Shown here: piece after piece, positions 1 through 24,396 of the stretch
Position numbering within the stretch: the stretch's first letter is position 1
Layout of the letters: each line of letters opens with the position of its first letter
IMG/VR virus record: IMGVR_UViG_3300031688_000123
Location: 1 to 25,428 of that record
Strand: one strand, 5' to 3'
Length of the DNA stretch: 25,428 nt
Origin: a virus
Lineage: Duplodnaviria > Caudoviricetes
Position numbers and translations under genes: made by a program
Notes under the pieces: model-generated
The model's database searches: none
Told to the model about the DNA's origin: nothing
What the model saw: only the letters and a program-made list of their open reading frames with translations

Positions 1-204
1 TCAGCAAGCTCAGTGACAATTACCCTGCCTGCAAGCCCTAGTGCTGGCAACGTAGTCTTCATTAAAAACGCTGGCACAGGCACAGTCACAGTGGGTCGTA
101 ATGGCTCTAAGATTAATTCGCAAACACAAGACGGAACCTTGGCGGCAGACGCTGCTGCAACTCTTGTTTTTGTGAACGCAACGATTGGATTTAAGGAGCT
201 TTGA
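1..204 (+). CDS. Tail fibre adaptor-domain protein, cassette 1 (5'-truncated)
   Basis: Frame 1 is open from base 1. The TITLPASPSAG...TVGRNGSKI...D.TL motif is shared with the ORFs at 1314 and 2754 and is typical of fibre repeat domains in aquatic phages. Confidence 0.7.
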   Translation, partial: SASSVTITLPASPSAGNVVFIKNAGTGTVTVGRNGSKINSQTQDGTLAADAAATLVFVNATIGFKEL

Positions 205-205
205 A

Positions 206-1087
206 ATGGCTATAAGTTTAGGTGGGGGCGGTAGTGCCTCAGTAATAAATGAAAAAATAAATATAAACTCAGCAGAAAACCTAATCACTTTGGCTGATGG
301 TCGTGTGTATCTCAAAGGCGGTGTTACGTCAACAGACACATCTACTTACCCAGATGCCACACAAAATATGGCATATACTGGAACAAATTTCAGCACAGCA
401 GGTCAGATGAGTGCTGAGTCAGGGGTTGCTTATGCGAGTGGACATCTATGGGTGCTGGGAAAATACAACAATACTGTATACAAATACACAACCGCTGGCT
501 CTTATACAGGAACTAGTTTTTCAGTAGCTGCTCAAGACTCTGATATGTTTGGCTTAACTGACAGAGACGGCCTAGAGTTTTTAGCGTGTGGTACTCAGAA
601 TAATAGAGTGTCTAGGTACACTAGTTCTGGTTCGTTTAACACTAGTTTTTCTATTGCAGCTCAAACAACTACCTGTAAAGGACTAGCGTGGGACGGCTCA
701 TTCGTGTGGGTCGTAAGCGGAAATGGCAGTGCCTCAACCATTCACAAGTATAACCTTAGCGGAACCTACCAGAACGTAGTTTATAACATCACTGCACAAG
801 ACAACAACGCACAAGGCATCACATGGGATGGCAGCTTTTTCTGGGTGTGCGGGCGGCAAAATAACAGCGTCTATCAGTTTACAGCCGCTGGCGTATATAC
901 GGGTAAAACACTAAGTGTTTCTTCTCAAGGTACAAGACCTGTAGGGATAAATTTTGGAGCTTCAGCTTATTGGGTGGTAGATGAAACTGCTAATAAAGTC
1001 TTCAAATACCTAAACCAAATTGGCGTAGTTTCTACGTCGTCTGGAGCAGCCACTACTGGTGAGCAAAACTATGTGAGGATTAAATGA
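206..1087 (+). CDS. Putative receptor-binding adhesin with beta-propeller-like repeats, cassette 1
   Basis: Start moved to ATG 206, which follows AAGGAG at 193-198. About 40-aa blades recur (GLAWDGSFVWVV, GITWDGSFFWVC). The N- and C-termini are similar to the ORF at 1664. Confidence 0.65.
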   Translation: MAISLGGGGSASVINEKININSAENLITLADGRVYLKGGVTSTDTSTYPDATQNMAYTGTNFSTAGQMSAESGVAYASGHLWVLGKYNNTVYKYTTAGSYTGTSFSVAAQDSDMFGLTDRDGLEFLACGTQNNRVSRYTSSGSFNTSFSIAAQTTTCKGLAWDGSFVWVVSGNGSASTIHKYNLSGTYQNVVYNITAQDNNAQGITWDGSFFWVCGRQNNSVYQFTAAGVYTGKTLSVSSQGTRPVGINFGASAYWVVDETANKVFKYLNQIGVVSTSSGAATTGEQNYVRIK

Positions 1088-1311
1088 TGACTTTAGTTAT
1101 ACAAGCAGACCATGTTTCGCCAACATCAGCAGCAATCTTCTGGCGCAATGATGAACTCGCTCGCACAGACATAGCCGCCACAGTTTCTGACTACCCGAAC
1201 GCAGCAGCCATCCTAGTGTACCGCGAGGCACTTAGGCAATGGCCTGCAAGAAACGAAGCTGGTGAATACATCAACGGCTTTCCCAACACACGACCAGTTA
1301 TAGGGGAATAA
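1084..1311 (+). CDS. Tail fibre assembly chaperone-like protein, cassette 1
   Basis: WRNDELARTD...YREALRQWP...FPNTRP resembles Phage_tail_APC-type chaperones. ATGA overlap with the upstream gene. Confidence 0.7.
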   Translation: MMTLVIQADHVSPTSAAIFWRNDELARTDIAATVSDYPNAAAILVYREALRQWPARNEAGEYINGFPNTRPVIGE

Positions 1312-1313
1312 CT

Positions 1314-1667
1314 ATGGCTTTAACAAAAGTAAAGGCTGGCGTTATTGCAGACGATTCAATTGGTGCTTCTCAAATTGCTTCTGACCCAATATCAGTGGGC
1401 ATCACCACAGTAGCCACAGCATCATCGTTGACAGCCACAGTTAATACTCATGTCTACGTTAGCGCAGCAGGTCAGACTATAACGCTGCCTGCGTCACCTT
1501 CGGCTGGTCAGCGAGTGCTGATTACCGTGGGTAACTTTGTTAACACAATTGTGGGTCGCAACAGCAGTAACATTATGTCTAGCGGCACTGATATGACACT
1601 GGACAAAGAGTACCTTTCAATTCAATTTATATTTACAGACGCGACACGCGGATGGGTAATGGCATGA
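1314..1667 (+). CDS. Tail fibre adaptor protein, cassette 2
   Basis: MALTKV anchor followed by the TITLPASPSAGQRV...VGRNSSNI...DATRGW domain. Confidence 0.7.
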   Translation: MALTKVKAGVIADDSIGASQIASDPISVGITTVATASSLTATVNTHVYVSAAGQTITLPASPSAGQRVLITVGNFVNTIVGRNSSNIMSSGTDMTLDKEYLSIQFIFTDATRGWVMA

Positions 1668-2551
1668 GCAACTTTAGTGATTTTATAAGTAGTGGCGGCG
1701 GCGGCTCAGAGGTCAATGACCAGAAGTTTATCAACAGTACAGCCAATCTTATTACAACAGAGTCAGGCGAGAAGTGGCTAAAGTCTGGAGTTACAGAGAC
1801 CTCAGTGTCCGACTATCCTAATGCAAGTACCGTTATATCTACCATAGCTAACGGGAGTTTTAACTTTAGTGCCGCATCAGCACCAAAAGGCATTGTGGCT
1901 ATAGGTTCTGATATTTGGGTACTTTATTCAGCAAGTATGCAAAAGTTTGCAAATACAGGGGGTTCTGCTCTAATTACTATAGGGACTTTAGGTGGGTCAG
2001 AAACTAACGCGAGAGGATTAGGTTACGATGGAACACATTTATATGTCGTAGGCGATCAGTACGATTGGGTGGCGCGGTACAACACTGCGGGTGTCTATCT
2101 AAACTCTAGCTTTTCGACTACTCCTTCCTCTTCTCCACGTTCTGCTGCTTGGGACGGGTCGCACTTCCATGTCTCTCAATATTCTAATAATACAGTCTAT
2201 AAGATTACTGCGGCTGGGGTCTACTCAGGACAAAGCTATACGGTGCAGGCTAGCGGCTGCTCTTTAACTGTTGCTGACGGTTATATTTATGCAATGAGAG
2301 CTGATTCTACTATTGATAAATACTCAACTGGCGGGGTTTTTATAAATACTTTAGCGGGGTATTCTTTTGTATCGGGAGTAGCTGGTAACAGTAGCAATAC
2401 TGCTTATACAGGTATTACCTATGATGGGTCTAATTTTTGGATTTGTGTGCTTAGTAATGAAAAGGCTTATAAGTTTACTACAACAAAAGTAGTCGGTCTT
2501 ACCTCTTCAACATCAGAAGCGGGTTCACCGCTGTATTCGAGGATACTCTAA
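1664..2551 (+). CDS. Putative receptor-binding adhesin with beta-propeller-like repeats, cassette 2
   Basis: Start moved to ATG 1664 (ATGA overlap, MSNFSDFISSGGGG). Repeats include GLGYDGTHLYVV, SAAWDGSHFHV and GITYDGSNFWIC. Paralog of 206-1087. Confidence 0.65.
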   Translation: MSNFSDFISSGGGGSEVNDQKFINSTANLITTESGEKWLKSGVTETSVSDYPNASTVISTIANGSFNFSAASAPKGIVAIGSDIWVLYSASMQKFANTGGSALITIGTLGGSETNARGLGYDGTHLYVVGDQYDWVARYNTAGVYLNSSFSTTPSSSPRSAAWDGSHFHVSQYSNNTVYKITAAGVYSGQSYTVQASGCSLTVADGYIYAMRADSTIDKYSTGGVFINTLAGYSFVSGVAGNSSNTAYTGITYDGSNFWICVLSNEKAYKFTTTKVVGLTSSTSEAGSPLYSRIL

Positions 2552-2754
2552 TGGCTATCGTTATATATGAACAAGTGCTTGAAACTCAAGAAGTATACGC
2601 AAAGCAATGGCGTGATGCAGAATTAACTCGCACTGACATATTGGTTGCAATACCTGATCATCCACAACGTGCGGCTCTTTTAACGTACCGTACTGATCTA
2701 AGAGCATGGCCCTCCACAGATTCGTTTCCAGACACAAGACCTGAGGTGAACTGA
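2551..2754 (+). CDS. Tail fibre assembly chaperone-like protein, cassette 2
   Basis: WRDAELTRTD...YRTDLRAWPSTDSFPDTRP. Confidence 0.7.
   Translation: MAIVIYEQVLETQEVYAKQWRDAELTRTDILVAIPDHPQRAALLTYRTDLRAWPSTDSFPDTRPEVN
2706..2741 (+). repeat. 36-bp direct repeat, copy 1 (copy 2 at 4170-4205)
   Basis: atggccctccacagattcgtttccagacacaagacc versus atggccgtccacagattcgtttcctgacacaagacc, 34/36 identical. Confidence 0.9.
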
Positions 2755-3059
2755 TGTCGATTACTAAAGTATCCTCAAGCGTTCTTGACAACACTGGTAT
2801 CCCTACAGCAACTGTAGGCAGCAATGCAAACGCTACACCTAACACACATCATTTCGTCAGTGCATCAGGTGTGACGCTAACTCTTCCAACTCCTACTGTG
2901 GGCATGAAGGTCTACGTAACTGTAGGTAACTTTGACACAACAGTCATTGGGCGCAATAGCAGCACCATCGTAGGCTCTGCAACAGACTTAACAATCAACG
3001 TAGCTAATATGTCTATCGGGCTTATTGGCACATCAACTTCATCATGGGTGTTTATATAA
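2754..3059 (+). CDS. Tail fibre adaptor protein, cassette 3
   Basis: MSITKV anchor, then VTLTLPTPTVGMKVYVTVGNF...IGRNSSTI. Paralog of 1314-1667. Confidence 0.7.
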   Translation: MSITKVSSSVLDNTGIPTATVGSNANATPNTHHFVSASGVTLTLPTPTVGMKVYVTVGNFDTTVIGRNSSTIVGSATDLTINVANMSIGLIGTSTSSWVFI

Positions 3060-3905
3060 ATGTCGAATTTAACTGACCTAATATCAGCAGGCGGTGGTGG
3101 TGGTACTTTATTTACAATCCCCGTTACCAAATCAACAACATGGACACCTCCGTTTAACGGTACTGCGGTTATCCATTGCATAGGCGCTGGCGGTTCTGGA
3201 GCTACTTCTCAGGCAAAGGAAAAGGCGGGTGGAGGCGCTGCTGGAGGATACTCTCGTAAAGTAGTTACTCTTTCCACAGGCACCAACTGGACAATGGTTG
3301 TAGGAGCAAGTGGCGCTCCGCAAAATGGTCAAGGAACCGGTAATGCTGGCGGAAATACTACTGCAACGGACGGCTCATCAAGCCTCGCGGCTAACGGTGG
3401 TGGTGGGGGTATAAACAACAGTGCGACAGCAGCAGCAGGCGGTACAGCTTCAGGAGGTGATGTAAATAATGCAGGAGGCGTTGGTGGCGCTGGCAGTCTT
3501 CCAATAGGTACTGGAGGCGCTGTTGGTATTTTAGGTACTGGAAACGCTGGCACTAACCATGATATCGAACACAATGACGTAAGTAATAGCGTTTATGGAG
3601 GACACTCTGATGTTATAAGTCCTCAGTTTGAGAATACTAACGGAGAGTTGAGAGGCGGTGGAAGAGGCGGTAGAAGTTATGCGTCTGCTTCAACTGTGCA
3701 GGGCGATAGGTCTAACGGAGGATTTTTAGCAGGTGGAGGGGCTGTCTACAACCAATACGTTAATACTATACAAGGCGGTGACGGTGGCATAGGCGCTGGT
3801 GGCGGTGCTTGCATGATTGGCGCAGCACCTACTCAACTAGGGCGGACTACTTCAGGCGCTGGTGGCCACGGCTTAATTATTGTCATGTACACGGCGATAG
3901 GGTAA
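3060..3905 (+). CDS. Glycine-rich adhesin-like protein, cassette 3
   Basis: The MSNLTDLISAGGGG N-terminus matches the cassette 2 adhesin. The body is a Gly-rich domain (IGAGGSG, GGGAAGGY, GAGGHGLIIVMY). Confidence 0.7.
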   Translation: MSNLTDLISAGGGGGTLFTIPVTKSTTWTPPFNGTAVIHCIGAGGSGATSQAKEKAGGGAAGGYSRKVVTLSTGTNWTMVVGASGAPQNGQGTGNAGGNTTATDGSSSLAANGGGGGINNSATAAAGGTASGGDVNNAGGVGGAGSLPIGTGGAVGILGTGNAGTNHDIEHNDVSNSVYGGHSDVISPQFENTNGELRGGGRGGRSYASASTVQGDRSNGGFLAGGGAVYNQYVNTIQGGDGGIGAGGGACMIGAAPTQLGRTTSGAGGHGLIIVMYTAIG

Positions 3906-3915
3906 GGAGAATACT

Positions 3916-4221
3916 ATGAGCAATAAATGGATAATTAAAGACGCTGATGGAAACATCACTAATCCTTGCATCTTATCTGATGAGGCTTTTGTGCAATCAA
4001 TTTCTGATTATTACGAAGAGTGGGTAGCGGCTGCACCTATCGCACCAACAGCAGAAGAAACTGCTCGCGGATGGCGCGATGCAGAACTGTCATCTACAGA
4101 CACAGCTTCACAGACCCCAGACTGGCCGAATCGTGACAACATCCTGACCTACCGGACTGCATTGCGTCAATGGCCGTCCACAGATTCGTTTCCTGACACA
4201 AGACCCGAACTAGGAAGCTAA
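3916..4221 (+). CDS. Tail fibre assembly chaperone-like protein, cassette 3
   Basis: AAGGAG RBS. WRDAELSSTD...YRTALRQWPSTDSFPDTRP with a longer N-terminal extension than its paralogs. Confidence 0.7.
   Translation: MSNKWIIKDADGNITNPCILSDEAFVQSISDYYEEWVAAAPIAPTAEETARGWRDAELSSTDTASQTPDWPNRDNILTYRTALRQWPSTDSFPDTRPELGS
4170..4205 (+). repeat. 36-bp direct repeat, copy 2
   Basis: 34/36 identical to 2706-2741. Confidence 0.9.
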
Positions 4222-4223
4222 AA

Positions 4224-4544
4224 ATGTCTCCAAAAAGGTTAGAGCCAGAGTCTCGCTATGCTGAGTTTGACTTAAATAACGATGGGATTGTTACGGACGA
4301 TGAAATTCATAAGCATCAAGAGATGGTTGAGTTGCAGCTCAGGGAAGAGAAAGCAGACAGCCAAAGAAAAATGGCATGGGTAGCGATGATATCAATGTGC
4401 GTTTATGCACTCTTACCTTTACTGCCTTTTATACCAGAAAGCAGACTAGAGACACTGGCCTCACTAAGCGACATGCTGTTTCTTAGTCAGGCATCAGTTA
4501 TTGGAATGTTTTTTGGGGCATCAGCTTATATGACGAGGAAGTGA
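4224..4544 (+). CDS. Holin-like membrane protein with EF-hand loop
   Basis: DLNNDGIVTDDE fits the 12-residue EF-hand loop. Two hydrophobic segments and a basic C-terminus follow. Confidence 0.6.
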   Translation: MSPKRLEPESRYAEFDLNNDGIVTDDEIHKHQEMVELQLREEKADSQRKMAWVAMISMCVYALLPLLPFIPESRLETLASLSDMLFLSQASVIGMFFGASAYMTRK

Positions 4545-4545
4545 G

Positions 4546-4914
4546 ATGGGAATTTTAAGTACGATACTGGGAAGCGGTGACGTTATCTCGAAGGGGCTGG
4601 GTCTCATAGACTCCATGCACACAAGCGATACAGAAATGATCGAGGCCAAAACAAAGGCTAAGACAGACCTGCTATCGGCGTATTCGCCATTTAAGATTGC
4701 ACAGCGTTACCTAGCCCTAATCTTTTGCTGCACATTTGTTGGATCATATTTTATGGTCTTGGCGCTCTTCTTTATGGATAAAGACATCTCGCAGGTACAA
4801 GAATTAATCACATCATTTAAGATCGACTGGATTTGCCTCACGATTGTCGGATTTTATTTTGGAGGCGGCGCATTTGAGGGCGTTATAAATAAGAAATCTG
4901 AGGCTAAGAAATGA
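4546..4914 (+). CDS. Holin-like protein (GTA 3TM holin-like)
   Basis: Amphipathic N-terminus, LID..HTS..E..EAK, two TM segments, GFYFGG and a Lys-rich tail. Confidence 0.6.
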   Translation: MGILSTILGSGDVISKGLGLIDSMHTSDTEMIEAKTKAKTDLLSAYSPFKIAQRYLALIFCCTFVGSYFMVLALFFMDKDISQVQELITSFKIDWICLTIVGFYFGGGAFEGVINKKSEAKK

Positions 4915-6905
4915 CAGGATTTAAAATCAATACCTTTGGTGGCACTGCCCCAAAAATATACTCTAGACTTCTTCCAAATGATGTTGCTCAAATTGCCCAA
5001 AATACACGACTCGATTCAGGCCGGTTAGAGCCTTGGAAAGGAAATGCCTCAGCCAGTATAACCCCCGTTGCGAGTTACAGTGTCTCGGCGCAGACCAAGA
5101 CCTTGTTTAAATATACCGATAGCATATGGATCGGAAGCGATAACGACCTTAATATAGTAAGAAGTCCTATCGCAGAAGATCCGTGGGAACGCATTTACCT
5201 AACGGGCCGTTATGGCGCATACCCTGAGATGACCTTATCATCTATTGTTGGATCGGGAACTTACTATCGCCTCGGTCTTCCTTTTCCGGCAAGCCTCCCT
5301 TCCGCCCCTGTGCTGTCAAACAAAGACGCTAGCGCTGAGTCGGCAACTCTGCTGACTGATACTGAAACTCCATTGTCGCGCTCCTACATATATACCTACG
5401 TTACTGCTTACGGAGAGGAGGGGCCTCCCTCCGTGCCGACATTAGCCAATATTGTAGACGTGTATACCGACCAGAACGCAACGGTGACATTTGGCAGCAA
5501 TGTAGCAGGCTACAACATTACATCTAAAAGACTTTATCGAACGGACTCCACAGGGGTATACAGGTTTGTTGCGGATGTAGCCTTTGCAAATGCAACTTAC
5601 TTAGACGTTACAGCAAATATTGATCTGGGAGAAGAAATCCCGACAGCGTCATTTGCAGCTCCGCCAGACGATGTATCAGCAGATCATCCAGATGGAGCTA
5701 TGCAGGGTTTGGTAGCTATGCCTAACGGAATCCTTGCAGGTTTTAGTGGTCAGGCGGTTTGCTTTAGCGAGTCATTTCAGCCCCATGCTTGGCCTACCGA
5801 CTACCAGTTAACGGTAAAGAGTGACATAGTCGCAATAGCCCCACTAACGAGCGGGTTGCTTATTCTTACAAAAGAAAAGCCAGCAATCATTCAGGGTCTT
5901 GATCCTTCTAGCATGGCAATGACAGAGATTGACTCTACACTTTCATGCGTGTCTAAGAGAAGCGTGGTAGATATGGGGGAGTATGTTATGTATGCCTCTC
6001 CAGACGGGCTTGTTATCGGTAGTGAGCAGGGATTAAAGATCGCTACTGGTCAAATACTGACACGGGATCAGTGGCAGGCGTTCGTCCCATCATCCTTAGT
6101 GGGGTTCTTGTGGGAAGGTCACTACATTGGGTTCTACTCTACAGCCTCTGAGAACAAGGGTTTCATCTTTGATCCTCGCGGTGGGAAAAATAGTTTTGTT
6201 AGTTTGGATTTCCATGCAACTGCTGGATTTAGCGATCTTGAAAATGATGAGCTATACCTTGTCGTTAACGGAAGCGTAGTAAAGTTTGCAGAAGGATCGG
6301 CCTTAAATCTCAAGTGGCGGTCAAAAAAATTCTACACCCCAAGACCAATAAATCCTGCTGTAGCAAAGGTTGATTGTGACTCCTACTCTATTACCTCTGT
6401 AACCCACACAGTTACAGTTGTTAATAGCGGTGGAAATAAGTATGCAATTGCAGGGCTTGGGACTGCGCCAGCGCTGACCTTAAAGAGGGGCGTAACATAT
6501 ACGTTTGATTTGTCAGATTCTAGCAACAGTAATCACCCGCTGGCCTTTAAAACATCCTCTGATGCCAGCTACACGACGGGAGTGACTACAACAGGAACTG
6601 CCGGATCTACCGGAGCGAAAGTTGTTTTTACTGTACCGGCAAGTGCGCCAAGCTCGTTAAAGTACTACTGCACTGTCCACGGCAACGCAATGGGAAATTC
6701 AATTTCGGTAAGCGAAGAAGAGCCGCTGACGTTTAAGATCTTTGCGGACGGAGTATTGAAGCATACGCAAGTGGTAGCTAGCAGCGAGTTATTCAGGCTA
6801 CCTTCTGGCTATAAAGGACAGGAGTTTGAAGTAGAGGTTACAGGCTCAGTGCCAATAAACGAGCTTTGTGTTTACGAATCAGCTGCGGAGATTGGACTTG
6901 AGTAA
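4911..6905 (+). CDS. Tail tube/nozzle (stabilisation)-like virion protein with inserted cupredoxin-like domain
   Basis: 664 aa, beta-rich. Motifs (FGG.AP...RLLP, YTYVTAYGEEGPPS, FSE...PHAWP, YASPDGLV, WRSKKF) resemble podovirus tail proteins. Lies directly before the fibre gene. Confidence 0.65.
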   Translation: MTGFKINTFGGTAPKIYSRLLPNDVAQIAQNTRLDSGRLEPWKGNASASITPVASYSVSAQTKTLFKYTDSIWIGSDNDLNIVRSPIAEDPWERIYLTGRYGAYPEMTLSSIVGSGTYYRLGLPFPASLPSAPVLSNKDASAESATLLTDTETPLSRSYIYTYVTAYGEEGPPSVPTLANIVDVYTDQNATVTFGSNVAGYNITSKRLYRTDSTGVYRFVADVAFANATYLDVTANIDLGEEIPTASFAAPPDDVSADHPDGAMQGLVAMPNGILAGFSGQAVCFSESFQPHAWPTDYQLTVKSDIVAIAPLTSGLLILTKEKPAIIQGLDPSSMAMTEIDSTLSCVSKRSVVDMGEYVMYASPDGLVIGSEQGLKIATGQILTRDQWQAFVPSSLVGFLWEGHYIGFYSTASENKGFIFDPRGGKNSFVSLDFHATAGFSDLENDELYLVVNGSVVKFAEGSALNLKWRSKKFYTPRPINPAVAKVDCDSYSITSVTHTVTVVNSGGNKYAIAGLGTAPALTLKRGVTYTFDLSDSSNSNHPLAFKTSSDASYTTGVTTTGTAGSTGAKVVFTVPASAPSSLKYYCTVHGNAMGNSISVSEEEPLTFKIFADGVLKHTQVVASSELFRLPSGYKGQEFEVEVTGSVPINELCVYESAAEIGLE

Positions 6906-13493: not shown

Positions 13494-16400
13494 ATGCTTT
13501 ACCTGAATAAGCCAAATAGAAGATCTCAATTTTATGACTTTGGTGAGGAAGACGAGACTGGTGCTTTAAATGAATTTAAGAAGGGCGTGTCTTCTGGCGT
13601 AGATCAGCTTCAAGGTTTAATTGGAGGTGGTGGCCGTGCGCTTGTAGGGTCTGCAATCGGCGACGATGAGATGTTCCGCAACGGCATGGAATATTACAAC
13701 GAGCAGATGAACGAAGCCGCTGAAAACGCGGCTGATGTAGGCAGTATTGAAGAGATTGAGGGGATTGGTGACTTTGTAAATTATTCTGCCTTTGTTGTAG
13801 GAAACATTATACCCAGCCTAATTGGTGGTGGCGGTGCTGGTGCCGCTGTCGGAGTTGTTGCGAAGAGAGCTGCAATGTCAGCCGCCGGAAAGGTAATAGC
13901 AAAGCAGAGCGCACAGCAGCTTACTAAAAAACAGGCAGCAACGCAGTACGCTAGATCTACTGTCGGTCAGGAAGCCCTAGCCAAGAGAGGCTTGGCAGGC
14001 CAGATGGTTGGCGCAACAGCTTTTGGAACCGCAGCGGGAGCAGGTGAATCCTTTACTCGTATCTATGACGAGACTGGTGAAGAAGCCGCTATAGAGGCAA
14101 TGATTACTGGCGTTGCGTCTGGCGCTCTGGATGCAATGGCTCCGATGAGAGCTTTAAAAAGAATACTTCCGCAAGGTGCGTTCAGGGATGCAAGTGAAGA
14201 AGTAGCCTCTGTCATGGCGAAAAAAAGAGGGGTCTTTAAAAGGGCGCTTACTGAAGCTGGTAAAAGCTCTGCCACTGAAGGCGTCACTGAGATGATGCAA
14301 GAGATCGTCCAGAATGCCGCGCTTGAAGTGGTACGCGGTTATGACCCTGCGCTCGAATCGTCATTTATTGAAAGAATGCTAGAAGATGGAAAGTTTTCAC
14401 AGTACAAAAACGCCTTTGTAGCTGGTGCTATTGGTGGCGGCGCAATGGGTGGTATTACAGGGGCGGTAACACAAGACCCTGAAACAAGAGCGGCGACAGT
14501 AAGGCAAGAGCAGCTACCCTCTCCAGAAGATTTTGACATCGCACAAAACTCTCAGCCTCCTGAAGTAGTTATAGATGATCAGTCCGCAGCACAGACAGCC
14601 CAGCAACGGCAAGAAGAGGTTCGTGCTAGGGCGCAAGGTCTACCTAAGCAGCGTCGGCAGATTCCTCGCACTGACCCCTCTGCCGTTAGAGCTGCCGAGC
14701 AGCAAGATATTATTGATAGAGAACTGCCTAACCGAAGAGATGATCTTGACTCAGGGGAAGCAACGGCTTCACGCGAATCTATTCAGCGCCAAATCAGAGA
14801 TCAGGTGGCCGGACTTCCAGCCGTAAGAGAGAATGTCAAAAAAATATTACAGGAAGTTACTGACGGAACCTACCGAAACGAAGGTGTTGGTGAGACGGTA
14901 ACTATACCGGCACCAGCCCCAGTAACTCCTGAGGCGGATGCTCCTACAGAAGTTAGTGGCTCACTCCCAGATCCCGCTAATGTCGCTCCCCCCATGACTG
15001 ATCTTATTGGTCGTGATGTAGAATACAATGGCAACAAAGGTCTTCTAATCGAAAAAGAAGATGGATTGTATGTGTCCACTCAGGATAACGGCGATGTCTT
15101 TATTGAGTCAGGCCAGAACAAATCACCGGCTGAGTTAGGTGTAGTGGCTGCTGCCTCTGACCTTGAATTTGAGAACGACTTTCAGATAGATCCAGAGACC
15201 AAAAAATTCACGTTGCGGGGGAAAGAATATACCCTCACCCGAATCGTAAAAGACAAAGACGGCAATCCACTGTCATTAGCAGTAAGAGATGCCAAGGGTA
15301 AGCGCAAGACCATTAAAGAAAAGTCTGTACTCGACCGCGCACAGGCACAAATGACTAAGCCACCAAACTTCGCTCAAATTAAAGTCGAGGTTGATGATCT
15401 TCCAGTAGACATACAGGAAGCAATTGTAAAGCAGTCAGATCCAGAGAATATACCTACAGAGATATCGGCACAGGAAGCTCTAGAGATAGCGCAATCTATG
15501 CCTGACGCGGATCAGGTTGCCACGGCTTTGAATGAATCTTTTCAGCTTACCTTAGCGGGCCGTGAGGCAGTCACATCTACACCTATGCAATACAGTCAGA
15601 CCATAACCAGACCTTCCTCTGACGTAACGCTGACTGAGGCGATTCAGCAAATCAATAAAGGCCAAGGGTCAAACAGATCTTCTATAGATGAGTCGCGTAT
15701 TGACAGCCTATTCGATGGCTTGTTTGACGGCCCTATTGTTTTATCAGACGGTGAGACATTAACTCCAGTTAACATGCTGGAAGGCATCAACGAATCTCCA
15801 GATGGCATGTCAGCCAACATCCGCCGAGAGGTTAAAGCTTCTATTCTAGATTTGATTGAAGCAGGTATGCCAAAGTCTGTACTAAAAGATATTTCAGGAA
15901 TCTTTATACACTCTCAAGGTACTTTTGCAAGGGAGACTGACGGTGCTTTTTTCCCTGATACATCGGCACTAAGCCTGAGCCTCTTGAACTTGGTCAATCT
16001 AGTCACAAGTACTGAGAACACGAACAACAGGGCAGGAAAGTTTCGATATGTTATGGCGCATGAGCTAGGCCATGCCTATGATATTGCCAGATCACTATCA
16101 GATGCAGCCCCTGAATTTAGAATTGAGATAGACGGGTTTACCCCAGAAGGTGTTGAGCTAAGTGTCGGGTCGATAATAAGCGAGCTTGGCCGTAACTACC
16201 AGAATGGAACTGAGCTGGGCATGGAGATGGACTACCCGTTTGGGGATGCTTGGTCAATGCTTAACGATAACCCTGATGCATCAGACCAAATTGTAGACGT
16301 GTTGCAGAAAGAAGCGTTTGCTCAGGGCTTTGCTGTCTATCACGCCAGCCCCGAACTTTTGCAAGAGTCTGCTCCATTAACGTATAATTACTTCAAGAAA

Positions 16401-19400
16401 CTGCTACAAACCCCAGCGGAGAGCCAGAGCGATGGACAAGTTAATACTGAAACCCAAGAAGTTGACGCCCAAGCTGGAGGAGTACGTCAAGACGTTCGGC
16501 CACAGACCGTCAGCGGAAGCGAACAAATTCAAGACGAATCAGGAATTGGAGAAGATGGCGGAGGTAGCGCTGTTGCGCAAGAAGCCAGTGAAGGACTGGG
16601 AGAGCAGACCCCACAGGAAGACGGGGACAATATTGGACAAGCTGTACAGTCAGAAGAAGATGCCGCAGACGCCAGAGCTGTAGATCAAGAATTAGGTGAC
16701 GTCGATGATGATTACGACCCGATGGATGACCTCGCATCGTTTGTTGACGACGGGTCTCCATTGTTTGCCCCGTTTAGTCGGGTTCCAGAACCAGATGAAA
16801 GCTCACCTGTACTCCCAATGGGTAAGGTCGAGCAGTCTCTATCTGACCTACTCGCCGAAAATCCCAACCCAACCGCAGAGCAGCTAGGGTCATTAGTTGG
16901 CGCACCCAAAAAACGCAAGGGTAAAGAGTCTGTTCAAGATGTAGATGTAAGACCCGTAACGCTAGATGAGTTGCGCGGATACGTTGAGGACTCATTGTCC
17001 AAGTCAGACAACCTAAAGTGGTATGACGACTTTGGAAATCTATTTAGAGACCTAGTCGGAGATGCAAATCTAGACGAAGCGTCAGTTATCTTTGGCATTA
17101 CCTCGGCACAGAACGCAGCGGAAAACAATCTAGCTGAAACTCTTCATATCATGTCGTTAGCCCGAAAGTTTGATCCGGTTAAACAGCGCAAGCAATTTGA
17201 GTTGGCCGTGAAGGCAACTCGCCGTCCTGACGGGCAGAAGCTTAAAATTACAGGAAGGCAAGTTACTGCGATTAGTGACCTTTATGCTAACGGTGACTTT
17301 GAGGGAGGCATAAAAACCACCACCTACATGCAGATGGTTGCGGACAGGGGTAGAAACGAATACAACCCGTTCAGTGTTCAGGATGTACACATGAGCCGCG
17401 TGTTCGGGTTCCGCAAAAAAGATTTTGATAAGAAATCTGGGGCGCTCGTTGATGCCGCTAAAGTCTCAGGAGAGAATGAGTATCGTTACGCTCAGTACCT
17501 GACCAGCGTATTGGCTGATGAGTTCGGAATGACTCCCAATCAGATGCAAGCAACCCTGTGGTTCTATGCAAAAGATAAGCTCACTCCAAAGAACAAAGGC
17601 GATGAAGACAAGGCCAAGAAAAAGCTTGAAAAATTAAGGAAGAAAGCAGAGGCCGAAGGGAAAGAGTTTGACGAAACCGCCCCAAGGTATGGTGATGGTA
17701 CGCCAGAATCATCTGCCTTATATGCAGCTCCAGAAATTCAAAAAATTGAGAGCATGATTGCTGATGGGACTTTTGATGCATCTGCCCCGCTGGCAGATTC
17801 TTTAGCAGACGGCGTCAGACCGCGAAATAAACCAGCACAAAAGACTACCCCATTCTCTACCGTAAATGAGCGAGAGGGCTTGATGGATTTGGCTAGAGCC
17901 AGATCTCCCAAGTTGATTGCTTCTGCGGTTGCAGGGAAAGGCAGAGGTCTTGCGTTTCCTGATGACACTCCAATTGAGACTCTTGTCCAGTACAACCAAG
18001 ATGTTATGGCTGCTATTGTCGATGATGGTGGGCAAATACCCATCCTTAGGGAGCTGGGAATACCTCACGAAATAGAGGAATCTGCCGGAACCTTTACCGG
18101 ATATGAGCCGTCAATAATGATTAGGCTTCTTGGTGGAAATTTGGAGACTGCTAACAAGCTTGCTCCGTTGCTAGGTGATGCATTGCTTCAGGATTCGGTT
18201 ATAACGTCTCAGGCGGTTTACGGTGAAGCCGGTCTTCCTGCCTTCGTAGTCGTTAAGAAGGACGGTTCTGATTTCTCTAGGGCAGATGCAATGGCTCTGG
18301 CCGAGTCGATGAATCCTAGCAAAGACCCTGAAGGAATAAACTTCAATCAACCTATGAACGACACCTTGATGTTTCTTGATTCAAGGTCAATGAAGGATGG
18401 TTTTGAATATACAGAGTTGCAAGCCGATGAGTTTTATTCTACTCTAGCTAATGAATTAGGTGACGGCTATTCTATTGGCGTCATCACTACCCAAGGAGAC
18501 TATCATGGTTCAGATAAATATAGAGAAGCTATCGAAAAGGCTTGGAATCGAGAGACTCCCAGCGGATCACAAAATATATACGACCGCACCAACGCTTCAC
18601 TTTACGAGCCGGTCAGAAAAGTCTACAACGAGTACGCAGAAAAGCTCGGCATCCCCAAGCGGGAAACAAAAGAGCTAGGCCCGCTACTCTCCCCACCTAG
18701 CAGTGATCGGTTACAACGCGCTAGGGACATGGGGTTTGACACGGATCGTGTGTTCTATCACGGAACGGATCAACAGTTTGACTCATTCTCAGGCGCAATG
18801 CGCGGCTCCGTCACTTCAGCAGACTCGGCAGCAGAAGCAGTATTTTTTTCCAGCAGAAAGAAAACAGCTCAGTCATATTCTCGCGGGAGAAACCCCAATC
18901 TCGAAACCTCTCGAAGGTTAGGAGGCACCCCTAGAGTAATCGAAGCTTATCTAAAGCTACAAAATCCGTTTATAGTTGACATGAAAAATTCTGGGTTTAA
19001 GGATGCTAGATCAACGGCTATTCTTAAGCAGGCAAAAGAGGCAGGCCATGACGGAGTTATCTTTCAACGGTACTATGATTACAATTCGTCAGTGCAAGGA
19101 CGGATAGATTCCTTTCTTACCAGAGGCGTATTAAGCGGTGAAGATATTGTCGCGGTATTTAACACTAATCAGATCCGTTCAGTAGACGCGCAGTTCGATC
19201 CGGCGAAGGCTGAATCTAGCAATATTCTATACTCACCTCCGTCACGCACATACGATGAAGTTAATGCCGCACGGAATGCTGAGATACGAGAGGAGAAAGG
19301 TAAGGTAGATAAGGCTAGTAGCTGGATCAAGAAAACCTTTAAGAGGCAGCTTACATCTAGAGGTCTGCTTAACGAGCAGGTCTTCCAAGCCAAGATTGCT

Positions 19401-21941
19401 AGAGATGGTGAGTTTGGTGCCGCCGAAATTGACACCCGCATGTACCTTAACTCCTATGATAAGGCTGTTAAGGACGCTAACCTTTCAGAAGAGCAGACAG
19501 CATTACTGAGTGAGGCTATCGCCACGCCATTAGATCAGTTAAACAGCCTTAACTTGCCTGACGCAGTGAAGCAGGCCATCGGAGGAATGCGTAAGTACCT
19601 CGACAAGATGTCTATTGATTACGCTCAGGTAGTTGCTGATCAAGCCTCGGCTCTAGTGGAGAGCGGTAAGGGTGATGCCGCAGCGGCGAAGATAGATCTC
19701 CTAAACACCATTGCATCTAACAAGGGCAAGTACCTCAACCGAAGCTACCAAGTCTTTGATGATCCCAAGTGGGCAAACAAAGTACCCAAGCCAGTCATCG
19801 ATAACGCCAGAACATTTCTTGAGGCTAATGGCGCACAGAATGCTGACAGAATTATTAACACCATTCTAAAGACGGGCACCGCTTTTGACAGTTTAAGCAG
19901 CTTCATCAGTGAAGGGAAGCTTGGCAGTAAAGATCTTTCTATCTTGAAGAAAAGAAAAGATATTGCGCCAGAGATTCTAGCCCTGATGGGAGAGTACACT
20001 GACCCGCGTATAAACTTTGTTAAGACAGCTACTAAGGTAAGCCGCCTGCTCTGGAATCACAAGTTCCTTGAGCGAGTTAAGCTTGAGGGTCAGCGGGATG
20101 GTTTCTTATTCACTGCCGAAGACGCTCCAACAGATGCCTATGTTCAGATAGCGCCTGACTCCTCAGATGCAATGAATCCATTGAATGGCCTGTACACAAC
20201 TCCAGAGTTGGCGCAGGGATTCGAGGACGCTATGGATCTAGGGTCTAACGTGGAGTGGGTAAAGAAGTGGCAGCAACTTAACTCAGTGGTTAAGTATGGC
20301 AAGACTGTTATAGCCCCTACTACGGTAGCCCGTAACTTCATGTCAGCGTCTTTGTTCACGGTTGCCAATGGTCACTTTAATTGGGCAAAGGGTGGCGAGT
20401 CACTAAAGTCCTTAAGGGGATTCTGGAGTGACGAGTCTAGCTACTTTGACTCAGCGGAAGGAGCCTCCACGGCTTATCTTCGCGAGATTAGGCGTCATGG
20501 TGTTATCTACGACAGCCCGTATGCAGGCGAATTAACTAAGGCTTTAGAGGACTTCTCCAGAGGAACGGAGCTAGACAATAAAGTTAAAGCTATTGACGGC
20601 ACAAAAGACAAGATAGCCCAAAAGTCTAAGAGCTTCCTTGACTTAGCTGCAAAGTTCTATCAGTACGGCGATGACTTTTGGAAGATCATTGGCTTTGAGA
20701 ATATGGTTGATGTTCTCATGGACAATAAGGGTCTAACCCGCGAGCAGGCCGTGCCTCTTGCTGCCGAAAGAATTAGGGACACATACCCGACATACTCACT
20801 CATAGGTAAGGGTGTAGCAGACCTCCGAAGATTCCCTATGGTCGGTACGTTTGTTTCTTTCCCCGCAGAAATTATTAGAACTAGCTTTAATATGTTCAAG
20901 TACTTAAAGCAGGATATGGCAGACCCAGATATGAGGGGTCACGCTATGACTAAAGTTGCTGGAATGTCAGCCGTATCGCTTGGAATCTACGCACTGCAAG
21001 ACGCAGCCATGCGAGCATTTGATGTGGATGAGGAGGAGCAGGAAGCCATCAGGCTGATGTCGCCAACGTGGAGCGAGAACTCCAACATCCTACCAACAGG
21101 TCGCGATGATGATGGCAACCTTGAGTACATTGATCTCACTTACTTAGATCCGTATGCCTATTTCAAGAAGCCTATTAACGCACTGATGAGAGACCAGCCT
21201 ACCGAGGACGCAATTGTTCAGGCAGGCCGCGAGCTGTTGACACCATTCTTGGGTGTAGATATTGCGACTGGTGCTGTGCTAGAGCTTTACAACAACGAAA
21301 AAGTTTCCGGCGGAAGGATTTGGAATCCCGCCGATACCCCCACCAATAAGCTTTCAGCCGCGACAGAACACCTGATAAAAGGCGCTGGCCCAGCAGTAAT
21401 TCAAAACGTCACTCGCACAGCTAAGGCAATAAACGGCGATGTCTCTAAGTCAGGTAAAAGGTATGAGCTTGAGGACGAACTAAAGGCTTGGGTCGGCTTC
21501 AGGGTTACCACGTTTGATCCTAAAGTCTCTTTGCACTTCAAGGCATACGAGTTTAATGAAGATAAGCGAAACGCTTCTAGCCTGCTCACATCTACGTTTA
21601 GAGACCCAAATCAGTTGGAGGAGGGTGAGCTAATAAATGCATTTGAACGCGCCTCAGCAGCTCGTAAAGAGGGCTATGAGCGCATGATTAAACTGGTATC
21701 TGCGGCAAGAAAGTCTGGCCTCAATAATACCCAGTTGATGATGGTGTTGCGGTCAAATGGCGTGACCAAGAAGGATGCCAAAGCATTAATAGCAGGCAAC
21801 CCAGCAACTTGGGAGATGTCGGACAGTACTCTTAAGAACAGTATTAAGAAGTCTGACCTACTATTTGGTGACGCCACTGGTAGAGAGTTTGAGAAACGCT
21901 GGCTTAAGATTCAGGAATTGCTAAGAGGTGAAACTCAATGA
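13494..21941 (+). CDS. Giant polyvalent internal virion protein (2815 aa): zincin metallopeptidase, HhH-glycosylase-like, ART-PolyVal-like and LPD38-like domains
   Basis: HELGH at 16059-16073 plus EAFA at 16311; WY...ITSAQ...GIK...QDVHM...QATLW at 17019-17561; YHGT...FFS...YLKLQNP...GHDGV...VFNTNQIRS at 18706-19235; helical C-terminal region with YIDLTYLDPY. Confidence 0.75.
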   Translation: MLYLNKPNRRSQFYDFGEEDETGALNEFKKGVSSGVDQLQGLIGGGGRALVGSAIGDDEMFRNGMEYYNEQMNEAAENAADVGSIEEIEGIGDFVNYSAFVVGNIIPSLIGGGGAGAAVGVVAKRAAMSAAGKVIAKQSAQQLTKKQAATQYARSTVGQEALAKRGLAGQMVGATAFGTAAGAGESFTRIYDETGEEAAIEAMITGVASGALDAMAPMRALKRILPQGAFRDASEEVASVMAKKRGVFKRALTEAGKSSATEGVTEMMQEIVQNAALEVVRGYDPALESSFIERMLEDGKFSQYKNAFVAGAIGGGAMGGITGAVTQDPETRAATVRQEQLPSPEDFDIAQNSQPPEVVIDDQSAAQTAQQRQEEVRARAQGLPKQRRQIPRTDPSAVRAAEQQDIIDRELPNRRDDLDSGEATASRESIQRQIRDQVAGLPAVRENVKKILQEVTDGTYRNEGVGETVTIPAPAPVTPEADAPTEVSGSLPDPANVAPPMTDLIGRDVEYNGNKGLLIEKEDGLYVSTQDNGDVFIESGQNKSPAELGVVAAASDLEFENDFQIDPETKKFTLRGKEYTLTRIVKDKDGNPLSLAVRDAKGKRKTIKEKSVLDRAQAQMTKPPNFAQIKVEVDDLPVDIQEAIVKQSDPENIPTEISAQEALEIAQSMPDADQVATALNESFQLTLAGREAVTSTPMQYSQTITRPSSDVTLTEAIQQINKGQGSNRSSIDESRIDSLFDGLFDGPIVLSDGETLTPVNMLEGINESPDGMSANIRREVKASILDLIEAGMPKSVLKDISGIFIHSQGTFARETDGAFFPDTSALSLSLLNLVNLVTSTENTNNRAGKFRYVMAHELGHAYDIARSLSDAAPEFRIEIDGFTPEGVELSVGSIISELGRNYQNGTELGMEMDYPFGDAWSMLNDNPDASDQIVDVLQKEAFAQGFAVYHASPELLQESAPLTYNYFKKLLQTPAESQSDGQVNTETQEVDAQAGGVRQDVRPQTVSGSEQIQDESGIGEDGGGSAVAQEASEGLGEQTPQEDGDNIGQAVQSEEDAADARAVDQELGDVDDDYDPMDDLASFVDDGSPLFAPFSRVPEPDESSPVLPMGKVEQSLSDLLAENPNPTAEQLGSLVGAPKKRKGKESVQDVDVRPVTLDELRGYVEDSLSKSDNLKWYDDFGNLFRDLVGDANLDEASVIFGITSAQNAAENNLAETLHIMSLARKFDPVKQRKQFELAVKATRRPDGQKLKITGRQVTAISDLYANGDFEGGIKTTTYMQMVADRGRNEYNPFSVQDVHMSRVFGFRKKDFDKKSGALVDAAKVSGENEYRYAQYLTSVLADEFGMTPNQMQATLWFYAKDKLTPKNKGDEDKAKKKLEKLRKKAEAEGKEFDETAPRYGDGTPESSALYAAPEIQKIESMIADGTFDASAPLADSLADGVRPRNKPAQKTTPFSTVNEREGLMDLARARSPKLIASAVAGKGRGLAFPDDTPIETLVQYNQDVMAAIVDDGGQIPILRELGIPHEIEESAGTFTGYEPSIMIRLLGGNLETANKLAPLLGDALLQDSVITSQAVYGEAGLPAFVVVKKDGSDFSRADAMALAESMNPSKDPEGINFNQPMNDTLMFLDSRSMKDGFEYTELQADEFYSTLANELGDGYSIGVITTQGDYHGSDKYREAIEKAWNRETPSGSQNIYDRTNASLYEPVRKVYNEYAEKLGIPKRETKELGPLLSPPSSDRLQRARDMGFDTDRVFYHGTDQQFDSFSGAMRGSVTSADSAAEAVFFSSRKKTAQSYSRGRNPNLETSRRLGGTPRVIEAYLKLQNPFIVDMKNSGFKDARSTAILKQAKEAGHDGVIFQRYYDYNSSVQGRIDSFLTRGVLSGEDIVAVFNTNQIRSVDAQFDPAKAESSNILYSPPSRTYDEVNAARNAEIREEKGKVDKASSWIKKTFKRQLTSRGLLNEQVFQAKIARDGEFGAAEIDTRMYLNSYDKAVKDANLSEEQTALLSEAIATPLDQLNSLNLPDAVKQAIGGMRKYLDKMSIDYAQVVADQASALVESGKGDAAAAKIDLLNTIASNKGKYLNRSYQVFDDPKWANKVPKPVIDNARTFLEANGAQNADRIINTILKTGTAFDSLSSFISEGKLGSKDLSILKKRKDIAPEILALMGEYTDPRINFVKTATKVSRLLWNHKFLERVKLEGQRDGFLFTAEDAPTDAYVQIAPDSSDAMNPLNGLYTTPELAQGFEDAMDLGSNVEWVKKWQQLNSVVKYGKTVIAPTTVARNFMSASLFTVANGHFNWAKGGESLKSLRGFWSDESSYFDSAEGASTAYLREIRRHGVIYDSPYAGELTKALEDFSRGTELDNKVKAIDGTKDKIAQKSKSFLDLAAKFYQYGDDFWKIIGFENMVDVLMDNKGLTREQAVPLAAERIRDTYPTYSLIGKGVADLRRFPMVGTFVSFPAEIIRTSFNMFKYLKQDMADPDMRGHAMTKVAGMSAVSLGIYALQDAAMRAFDVDEEEQEAIRLMSPTWSENSNILPTGRDDDGNLEYIDLTYLDPYAYFKKPINALMRDQPTEDAIVQAGRELLTPFLGVDIATGAVLELYNNEKVSGGRIWNPADTPTNKLSAATEHLIKGAGPAVIQNVTRTAKAINGDVSKSGKRYELEDELKAWVGFRVTTFDPKVSLHFKAYEFNEDKRNASSLLTSTFRDPNQLEEGELINAFERASAARKEGYERMIKLVSAARKSGLNNTQLMMVLRSNGVTKKDAKALIAGNPATWEMSDSTLKNSIKKSDLLFGDATGREFEKRWLKIQELLRGETQ
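16359..16388 (+). promoter_or_regulatory. Internal sigma70-like promoter upstream of nested ORF A
   Basis: TTGCAA (16359-16364), N18, perfect TATAAT (16383-16388), about 45 nt before ATG 16432. Confidence 0.6.
16432..16683 (+). CDS. Nested +1-frame ORF A (83 aa, basic) inside the giant gene
   Basis: ATG with GGAG at 16418-16421 and an upstream promoter. The sequence is helical and protein-like, while the host frame is a low-complexity acidic linker over this span. Confidence 0.6.
   Translation: MDKLILKPKKLTPKLEEYVKTFGHRPSAEANKFKTNQELEKMAEVALLRKKPVKDWESRPHRKTGTILDKLYSQKKMPQTPEL
18417..18445 (+). promoter_or_regulatory. Candidate internal promoter upstream of nested ORF B
   Basis: TTGCAA (18417-18422), N17, TACTCT (18440-18445). 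Confidence 0.35.
18505..18678 (+). CDS. Nested +1-frame ORF B (57 aa) inside the giant gene
   Basis: AAGGAG at 18493-18498, a 6-nt spacer, then ATG 18505. Encodes MVQINIEKLSKRLGIERLPADHKIYTTAPTLHFTSRS. Its stop falls at the start of the ART-module junction. Confidence 0.55.
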   Translation: MVQINIEKLSKRLGIERLPADHKIYTTAPTLHFTSRSEKSTTSTQKSSASPSGKQKS

Positions 21942-23261: not shown

Positions 23262-24314
23262 CTAATATAGTCCTACTATTTTTGAGCTAATTTCTCTGGC
23301 TCTTTTACGGTCATCCTGAACATATCTTTTGACGCTTTCTAAACTTTTCCAGCCACCCACCATACGAATGTCTTCAAGATCAGCTCCGGCATTTTTAAGC
23401 CATGTTGCAAAGCTGTGACGTAACGTATGGAATACAAGCTTGTCCTCAGGAATTAACAGCTCTTCATCTCCTGAGCTACCCATAATATAGGTGTTGTACA
23501 TCCTTATAGAGGCATGCCACTTGAGTTTAGTTACCGCCGATGCTGTCATTGGCTTGCCAAGATAATTACTGTCTTCCTGAACAAACACATACTCCAGCGA
23601 TAGCTGAGGGTACTCAGCCTTTAGTCTATTTCTGACCGCAAGCCTATCTTTAAGAACCTCTGTCGCCAACTCATTAAGCTCAACATTGTGATCAGATCCG
23701 TTCTTAAGCTCACCCCCAGAAATATGCAGTCGGGTCAAATCCTTACTGACCTGTGACCACCTGAGACGAACAATGTTAGACTTTCTAAGACCTGTCGCTA
23801 AACCCATTCTCACAAAGTCTTTTCGCAGTGGATCAAGAAATCTCATCCACCCCTTCGCAACTTTAGTCGGCAAAAAATAATCCCTACCTTTTGTTGGAAG
23901 CCTTACAATCTTCGGAAACTTCCGAAATGAAACGTCTAAACTGTCATGGGCGTAATTGCACAACGACTTGAGGTACGTCAGGTATGTGTTGATTGCATCG
24001 TTACCTATCCCCTTGCCGCTCCGTAAGAGAGTCACCATCTTGGTGATATCGAGATTGGAAATGTCACCCATCTCCCGACCCTCAAAAATACCAGAGGTCT
24101 CATCCATCGAAATAACCTTATGCTTAAGCAACCGTGTTTTGGCTCCGTATGCAATAGGGCTTTTCCCGCCTTCTACTAAAATCATCAAAGGTCTTTTCGT
24201 ACACATCCACTCAAGCGAAGATACCGCGTTACTGCTTTTTACACGCCCAAGCTTTTTAGTTGGTTCAGCTAAGTACAACTGAGCCGCTTCTTCAAACAAG
24301 ATATTATCACTCAT
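23262..24314 (-). CDS. int: Tyrosine recombinase (phage integrase)
   Basis: Catalytic set TGLR, LKNG, FHTLRHSFA, GGW and KRY. Start is probably ATG 24314, with GGAG 6 nt upstream. Confidence 0.92.
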   Translation of the reverse strand: MSDNILFEEAAQLYLAEPTKKLGRVKSSNAVSSLEWMCTKRPLMILVEGGKSPIAYGAKTRLLKHKVISMDETSGIFEGREMGDISNLDITKMVTLLRSGKGIGNDAINTYLTYLKSLCNYAHDSLDVSFRKFPKIVRLPTKGRDYFLPTKVAKGWMRFLDPLRKDFVRMGLATGLRKSNIVRLRWSQVSKDLTRLHISGGELKNGSDHNVELNELATEVLKDRLAVRNRLKAEYPQLSLEYVFVQEDSNYLGKPMTASAVTKLKWHASIRMYNTYIMGSSGDEELLIPEDKLVFHTLRHSFATWLKNAGADLEDIRMVGGWKSLESVKRYVQDDRKRAREISSKIVGLY

Positions 24315-24367
24315 AAATTTCTCCATCGAGCGAAGCTATCCACACAAATCGAGGCTAGGATAGCATT

Positions 24368-24396
24368 ATTATAAAGGCAATTAAAAGGCCTCTAAA
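24368..24396 (-). promoter_or_regulatory. Candidate integrase promoter
   Basis: Minus strand TTTAGA (24396-24391), N17, TATAAT (24373-24368). Confidence 0.5.

Follow-up and report, generated by a model that had tools for sequence, protein, structure and literature searches.

The window analyzed here is a stretch of 25,428 bases (IMG/VR record IMGVR_UViG_3300031688_000123, positions 1 to 25,428), a linear marine virus of the Caudoviricetes at 48% completeness in which a PHROG comparison identified tail genes, internal-virion genes, and an integrase. One gene in it encodes a giant protein of the polyvalent or internal-virion type, whose reading frame we refer to as the host frame. This protein carries a zincin metallopeptidase domain and, farther on, an ADP-ribosyltransferase domain (Table 1); its C-terminal part (amino acids [aa] 2037 to 2793) matches phrog_22602, a virion structural protein, and aa 932 to 970 gave a weak match to ATLF in Pfam. 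No MuF or secretion-system N-terminal domain was matched in the giant protein by Pfam, PHROG, or NCBIfam. Directly behind the zincin, the +1 frame contains a second, nested open reading frame (ORF) of 83 aa, ORF A. Sequence comparisons indicate that ORF A is a real overprinted gene, with selection acting mainly on the +1 frame, and we put it forward as a candidate antidote to the zincin.

TABLE 1 Features of the giant-protein gene and of the ORFs nested in it, with positions in the window
Feature	Position	Strand	Basis or remark
Giant polyvalent/internal-virion-type protein gene (host frame)	13494..21941	+	2815 aa; ORF list
Gluzincin (MPTase-like) metallopeptidase domain, aa ~751-975 of 2815	15744..16418	+	Alignment of 46 loci; AlphaFold2 (AF2); Foldseek
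HExxH zinc-binding motif HELGH, aa 856-860	16059..16073	+	Sequence
Predicted third zinc ligand, Glu940 in E-x-F-A-Q	16311..16313	+	Invariant in 46 aligned loci
Candidate -35 hexamer TTGCAA	16359..16364	+	18-nucleotide spacer to -10; 10/12 with -10; not conserved in relatives
Candidate -10 hexamer TATAAT, Tyr-Asn in host frame, zincin last helix	16383..16388	+	Partly conserved
Shine-Dalgarno (SD) GGAG of ORF A	16418..16421	+	SD-like motif in 44/47 zincin-found loci vs 16% before other +1 start codons
Acidic Q/E/D/G-rich host-frame linker overlapping ORF A	16431..16682	+	Composition; no invariant residue in 44 loci
ORF A, nested +1-frame gene, 83 aa, predicted five-helix domain, putative zincin antidote	16432..16683	+	ORF list; homologs; frame statistics
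ORF B, second nested +1 ORF, 57 aa, behind another domain	18495..18678	+	SD 18495-18498; ATG 18505; 4-copy nested family
ART-PolyVal ADP-ribosyltransferase domain, aa 1753-1899	18750..19190	+	PF18760, E 4.3e-15

A first-pass annotation, made from the DNA letters alone, had placed ORF A behind an HExxH metallopeptidase, and the comparative data bear this out. In an alignment of 46 loci, H-E-x-x-H, an Asp at +3, and the downstream Glu are all invariant (H106, E107, H110, and E190 in alignment numbering). The AF2 model, of the gluzincin type with a predicted local distance difference test score (pLDDT) of 87, places the HExxH motif and the later Glu each in a helix and includes a three-stranded sheet (strands 52 to 56, 67 to 70, and 75 to 79). 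The lethal-factor/PPEP fold ranked first in a Foldseek search with this model (probability, 0.9 to 0.99), at a best E value of only 0.011. By its sequence features, namely HExxH plus Glu and an Asp three residues after the motif, the predicted domain matches the phage-type MPTase clade as that clade is characterized in the text of PMC5512222. Its net charge is -18 (family mean, -17).

ORF A had been described as a basic 83-aa ORF following GGAG and ATG, and so it is, with a net charge of +9 (family mean, +3.8). Such signals in a single sequence are weak and not significant alone. Synonymous shuffles of the giant gene contained a mean of 0.94 +1 ORFs of ≥72 aa, and the ORF A span stayed open in 10 of 300 shuffles; ORF length alone was rejected as evidence, given that shuffling yields about one such +1 ORF. 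Word-indexed searches with ORF A alone returned only the window's own sequence, and full phmmer searches and DNA-motif scans were needed to recover the family. Searching 1.84 billion representatives, phmmer found 46 relatives at E ≤1e-3 and 21 at E ≤1e-10, many of them 72 to 100 aa long. A DNA motif derived from the family detected 28 loci in the viral scan, and 28 of 28 were nested in the +1 frame inside an ORF of >1,700 aa; motif scans yielded at least 119 loci in metagenomes and 5 in GTDB genomes. Among the matches listed, there were 112 distinct motif-found loci (63 nested, 48 free, and 1 unclear), so that stand-alone homologs, which the first-pass annotation had proposed looking for, do exist. 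Two loci were left out of the locus sets, L158 (a chance motif match) and L043 (too short).

The conserved unit of ORF A spans ~72 to 75 aa, with residues Y18, F22, H24, P52, and W56 conserved, and the last ~10 residues form a variable tail. The AF2 model consists of five helices (pLDDT, 85). We found no family for ORF A in Pfam, PHROGs, NCBIfam, or PADLOC, and no known family common to 41 aligned members. Against the PDB, a profile search returned a single partial match (8fje; E value, 4e-4; positions 13 to 43). The fold had no Foldseek match at E ≤0.001 and a best Z score of 3.0 with VIA, results that do not by themselves prove a new fold, and the ESM Atlas returned unnamed clusters only, below 0.9. 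We also considered loss of the ORF A His as a mark of a dead zincin and rejected it, since L202 and L218 lack the His yet keep HExxH.

Over a 64-codon core of the overlap in 46 nested loci, identity was 52% in the +1 frame versus 37% in the host frame, and 44% versus 34% without the motif columns. Host third-codon positions were least variable over ORF A (entropy of 0.74; the two zincin controls had 1.54 and 1.65), and close pairs of these ORF A-found nested loci had synonymous/nonsynonymous counts of 380/374 for ORF A versus 36/741 for the host frame. Because this first set had been found through ORF A, the frame test was repeated on loci found through the zincin alone (86 loci). The frame statistics used 44 of 49 such loci (L196 and L224 were left out, together with three that failed the gap-free-core or duplicate filter), and identity was again higher in the +1 frame, at 42.5% versus 31.3%. 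Synonymous/nonsynonymous counts were 225/260 for ORF A versus 68/430 for the host frame, and five residues were invariant in ORF A versus none in the host frame. A start codon was present in 47 of 47 zincin-found loci (2 of 49 lacked the anchor motif). The earlier expectation that the +1 frame carries the selection was thus supported, and the main frame did not prove to be the more conserved of the two.

The main frame over ORF A had also been called Q/E/D/G-rich. These residues make up 54% of the linker versus 28% of the whole protein, hydrophobic residues account for 14% versus 28%, and the net charge is -17. The host frame is open throughout the overlap despite its low conservation. Because the +1 frame is the more conserved, the acidic linker is best read as a shadow of ORF A.

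ORF A is tightly coupled to the zincin. Nested ORF A loci with ≥175 aa of upstream sequence had HExxH in 48 of 48 cases (among the matches listed), and 49 of 55 distinct loci chosen by the zincin alone had ORF A in the +1 frame. The six exceptions comprise a truncated contig (L221), a displaced ORF A (L210), a diverged A-like ORF (L218), and three distant zincins (L174, L183, and L199). At L210, ORF A begins 478 nucleotides past the zincin Glu codon, after an extra host-frame segment, and has its own TATAAT and GGAG. The three distant zincins have a different conserved nested ORF at the ORF A spot, as do three more zincins that scored 37 to 40 bits. A short distant zincin clade (L174, L183, L186, L199, L208, and L239) carries an unrelated nested ORF of 56 to 60 aa in the ORF A position, an apparent non-orthologous replacement of ORF A. 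Of 46 zincin pairs that were >70% identical, only 15 had the next 300 aa in common, while ORF A averaged 91% identity; the comparisons indicate that zincin and ORF A travel as one module. Zincin and ORF A distances were correlated (Spearman coefficient, 0.55), and the charges of the two are complementary.

ORF A is open in the free copies, whose former host frame has as many as 11 stops. On a quick tree, free copies were intermingled with nested ones, with 18 label changes, at least 6 of them forced by strong branches; the tree (115 rows and 68 columns, with 48 of 112 inner branches open) gives no direction by itself. DNA comparison of 30 free loci with nested genes gave matches over ORF A for 22 of them, and as a rule the match was confined to the ORF. 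Relative to the ATG, homology extended from -1 to +216 at L159, 0 to +184 at L161, -38 to +224 at L134, and -133 to +221 at L094, where the free copy retains the last helix of the zincin. That the matches end at ORF borders and that L094 retains this helix point to capture from the phage gene. Other giant-gene matches in the 48 free loci lay mostly within other nested ORFs in 17 of 23 cases, versus a background share of 10.8%.

On bacteria-like DNA, copies of ORF A free of the effector cluster in mobile or defense islands (L159 and L161) and arrays (L050, L091, L117, L072, and L096). The L159 island, which adjoins tmRNA and smpB, contains a type I restriction-modification (R-M) system followed by a fusion of nested families B and E, two E-family ORFs, and ORF A, so that the array is located between hsdR and the tmRNA end of the island. 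This array (oriented positions 5430 to 6560; record positions 3430 to 4566, minus strand) holds four apparently captured nested ORFs and a near-perfect internal repeat. At L161, ORF A is in a tRNA-Met integrase/AlpA island, ahead of type I R-M and NucS. Arrays at L050, L091, L117, L066, and L114 alternate ORF A with another family, and L072 and L096 have two ORF A paralogs each. In P0081 and L070 (410 to 1879), the ORF A domain is fused to a T5orf172 domain, and in L056 (744 to 1256) such a domain adjoins it. P0086 is among the copies that are fused or adjacent to T5orf172 domains or have hydrophobic membrane-like tails; C-terminal tails of this kind were noted by eye in copies such as P0043, P0044, P0048, P0049, P0065, and P0070. 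P0068 and P0073 consist of two tandem ORF A copies.

The first-pass annotation had pointed to a perfect TATAAT, read as Tyr-Asn where the zincin ends, and this hexamer does lie in the last helix of the zincin. Its proposed role in an internal promoter is borne out in part. TATAAT occurs at this position in 21 of 74 loci, Tyr is encoded by TAT in 49 of 67 (background, 47%), and Tyr-Asn has AAT in 30 of 30 (background, 44%). This codon bias is suggestive only, because the loci are related and no -35 is conserved. A TATAAT-GGAG-RTG pattern, picked post hoc, had three matches at two places versus 0.38 expected. Promoter consensus score was rejected as stand-alone evidence, given that the region contains 11 promoter-like sites versus 24.4 in shuffles, that is, fewer than expected. 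In two of four marine metatranscriptome runs, pieces along most of the giant gene were covered, ORF A included; these RNA contigs are neutral on the promoter because they show neither start nor level.

ORF A is one of several such nested genes. Across all giant ORFs fetched, we detected 243 SD-led nested ORFs, of which 238 were in the +1 frame, and these include several conserved families. Upstream domains were similar within nested-ORF families, and no similar pair was found across unrelated families, except for two zincin-linked families; in this comparison, one 18-member cluster combines two families (of its 153 pairs, 81 were similar), and the 6-member family D was left out. ORF B, the second nested ORF of the window, is 46% identical to a free ORF in the L159 island that is fused there to an E-family ORF. 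In family E, TATAAT or TATACT occurs about 50 nucleotides ahead of the ATG. Further +1 nested families were seen in L007, L051, L061, L087, L222, and others, each behind a particular host-frame domain, and several of the upstream domains of other nested families are presumably HhH-glycosylase-like, judging by their motifs. The giant protein of the window has two unannotated globular-looking domains (16752 to 17800 and 17830 to 18500, both on the plus strand); behind the former, no SD-led nested ORF of ≥35 aa was found.

We postulate, as a fairly probable explanation, that ORF A encodes a cognate inhibitor of the zincin that serves phage self-protection or superinfection exclusion and that bacteria have harvested as orphan immunity. 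An antidote is suggested because ORF A is domain specific, is located directly behind the zincin, is replaced when the zincin diverges, and is collected alone in islands, which together form the signature of an immunity gene. The complementary charges of zincin and ORF A are in keeping with this. The first-pass annotation had proposed "a protease inhibitor or partner protein," which would fit the close tie between ORF A and the zincin, its replacement where the zincin is a distant one, and the apparent excision into arrays in bacterial islands. The giant protein would be packaged and injected with an active zincin, and ORF A would be made separately from its own start, probably by way of an internal -10 promoter. 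If made separately, ORF A could be present without the giant protein, either at an early stage or in lysogenized cells (an integrase gene lies in the window). As a small cytoplasmic antidote, it is predicted to bind or block the zincin, either protecting the cell that synthesizes the giant protein or excluding related phages, and bacteria or integrative elements may collect such antidotes to shield uninfected cells from injected phage enzymes, as a form of orphan immunity. Overprinting would let an internal effector domain keep its cognate immunity gene directly behind it, with both traveling as one recombining module. We give slightly less than even credence to a broader proposal, that giant injected phage proteins carry a hidden overprinted antidote for each enzymatic domain and that marine bacteria and their islands have excised these into arrays as an antiphage defense directed at injected virion enzymes.

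Several observations weigh against this explanation. Physical linkage alone yields co-inheritance and a distance correlation, and the 17 of 23 matches within other nested ORFs are not independent events because some arrays are related to each other. In cell genomes, free copies are accessory and seldom found (1 of 201 genomes in the family of G001). Of the five motif matches from GTDB genomes, four were true, including a broken one, and many of the free loci lie on short contigs of unknown origin. ORF A had no sequence likeness to known inhibitors. Its mean column identity of 59% exceeds the 34% of its zincin, whereas many immunity genes evolve fast. Finally, conservation does not extend to the -35, and about a third of loci have a -10 without its last T.

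Four other explanations have to be set against an antidote. ORF A could be an independent superinfection-exclusion or host-modulating "moron" that settled in an unconstrained linker and does not target the neighboring protease. Its high conservation across divergent zincins, its occurrence as a free gene and in fusions, and the L210 locus, where it need not abut the zincin, are all compatible with a moron, and capture into islands would be accounted for as well. We nevertheless consider this unlikely, given that these proteins have many linkers and that nested ORF A was seen only downstream of a zincin (48 of 48 among the matches listed), that each of the other nested families is likewise tied to an upstream domain of its own, and that the distant zincin clade has a nested ORF of its own. 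Still less probable, in our view, is a role for ORF A as substrate mimic or bait of the zincin, in which case it would titrate or time the protease in the phage and act in bacteria as a sensor that triggers a fused or neighboring effector (an integrated decoy). The free copies fused to T5orf172 nuclease-like domains or found beside one, and those with hydrophobic tails, suggest such a sensor, but most free copies are unfused ORFs of 72 to 90 aa in arrays, the fusions vary and may be read-through into adjoining DNA, and the ORF A domain is predicted to be compactly folded.

The strict linkage to the giant gene could also mean that ORF A is a chaperone or a packaging or processing cofactor of the giant protein that acts in assembly only, with the free copies being decaying prophage debris. 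MPTases have been proposed to autoprocess polyvalent proteins (in the text of PMC5512222), and some host-frame sequence is kept in L094, L038, and L113. However, ORF A stays open in free copies while the host frame gathers stops, homology stops at ORF borders, and arrays stack ORFs from different phages, which makes a pure assembly role very improbable. Least credible is that ORF A is translated only when a programmed +1 frameshift extends the zincin, or that it is the shadow of a conserved linker and goes untranslated. A database protein, P0053, does join the zincin C terminus to ORF A, but it is probably the product of an assembly indel, because a near-identical sequence is nested normally in L024. 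The conserved start codon and SD-like motif (44 of 47 loci) the ATG at which free copies begin, the substitution counts, and the lack of any invariant host-frame residue speak against this explanation in either form, and it is already largely refuted.

With respect to known systems, the giant protein resembles the polyvalent proteins treated in PMC5512222 (Iyer et al., 2017), which are likewise giant multidomain phage proteins with a zincin-like MPTase and ART-PolyVal; here, the protein also matches a virion PHROG. For the MPTase domains of polyvalent proteins, that text proposes autoprocessing or effector roles and names no cognate inhibitor; in its main text, "overlap" occurs 0 times, and the sole "reading frame" passage concerns separate cassettes. 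A literature search, with most subscription papers outside its reach, found no description of nested genes in polyvalent or ejection proteins. The toxin-immunity pairs of MuF proteins, as presented in PMC5576092, are similar in that a small ORF without a known domain lies directly downstream, is specific to the effector domain, and occurs in temperate phages. They differ in having a C-terminal toxin and an immunity ORF that follows the toxin gene, whereas the zincin is internal here; also unlike those pairs, a giant protein has several predicted effector domains, all internal, with each small gene overprinted inside a continuing frame. The zincin/ORF A pair resembles a polymorphic toxin-immunity module by its predicted features yet falls outside that class: the zincin does not lie at the C terminus, the searches above matched neither a MuF nor a secretion domain, and the small gene is overprinted.

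AID and rAID arrays are orphan immunity arrays. The orphan immunity genes of type VI secretion systems, in the account of PMC10539506, are comparable to the free copies of ORF A as effector-free, immunity-like genes stacked in arrays in mobile islands. Here, with a phage virion-protein gene as the source, the threat would come from a phage enzyme that is injected and not from a toxin made by bacteria. Spackle of phage T4 is encoded by a separate gene. It is the closest functional model, being a small phage protein that blocks the phage's own virion enzyme (the gp5 tail lysozyme) in superinfection exclusion, but it differs in being a periplasmic early protein that acts on a lysozyme (as described in the text of PMC7677548). 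PDB profile, Foldseek, and VIA searches gave no sequence or fold match between Spackle and ORF A.

Elsewhere in the window, a further +1 ORF of 83 aa in the giant gene (14575 to 14826, plus strand) was found only in the window and in a near-identical contig and is probably due to chance. The tail region (1 to 4221, plus strand) has short adaptor, receptor-binding-like, and chaperone-like genes arranged as repeated cassettes of three to four similar units. A tyrosine integrase gene (23262 to 24373, minus strand) has TTTAGA-17-TATAAT and GGAG upstream, which suggests that the phage is temperate.

The roles of enzymatic domains in phage polyvalent and ejection proteins have so far been largely predicted. 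If our explanation is true, having a cognate inhibitor for every domain would reveal those that harm the cell and would supply reagents for cloning and assays. It would also point to a class of defense genes that standard annotation hides inside longer ORFs and that gene callers have largely missed. Among the acidic low-complexity "linkers" of these proteins, some may have to be reread as shadows of a second gene. The large natural set of overprinted genes with free relatives also opens the origin and release of overlapping genes to direct tests. An arms race between effectors and immunity proteins would then be written in the +1 frame of these phage genes.

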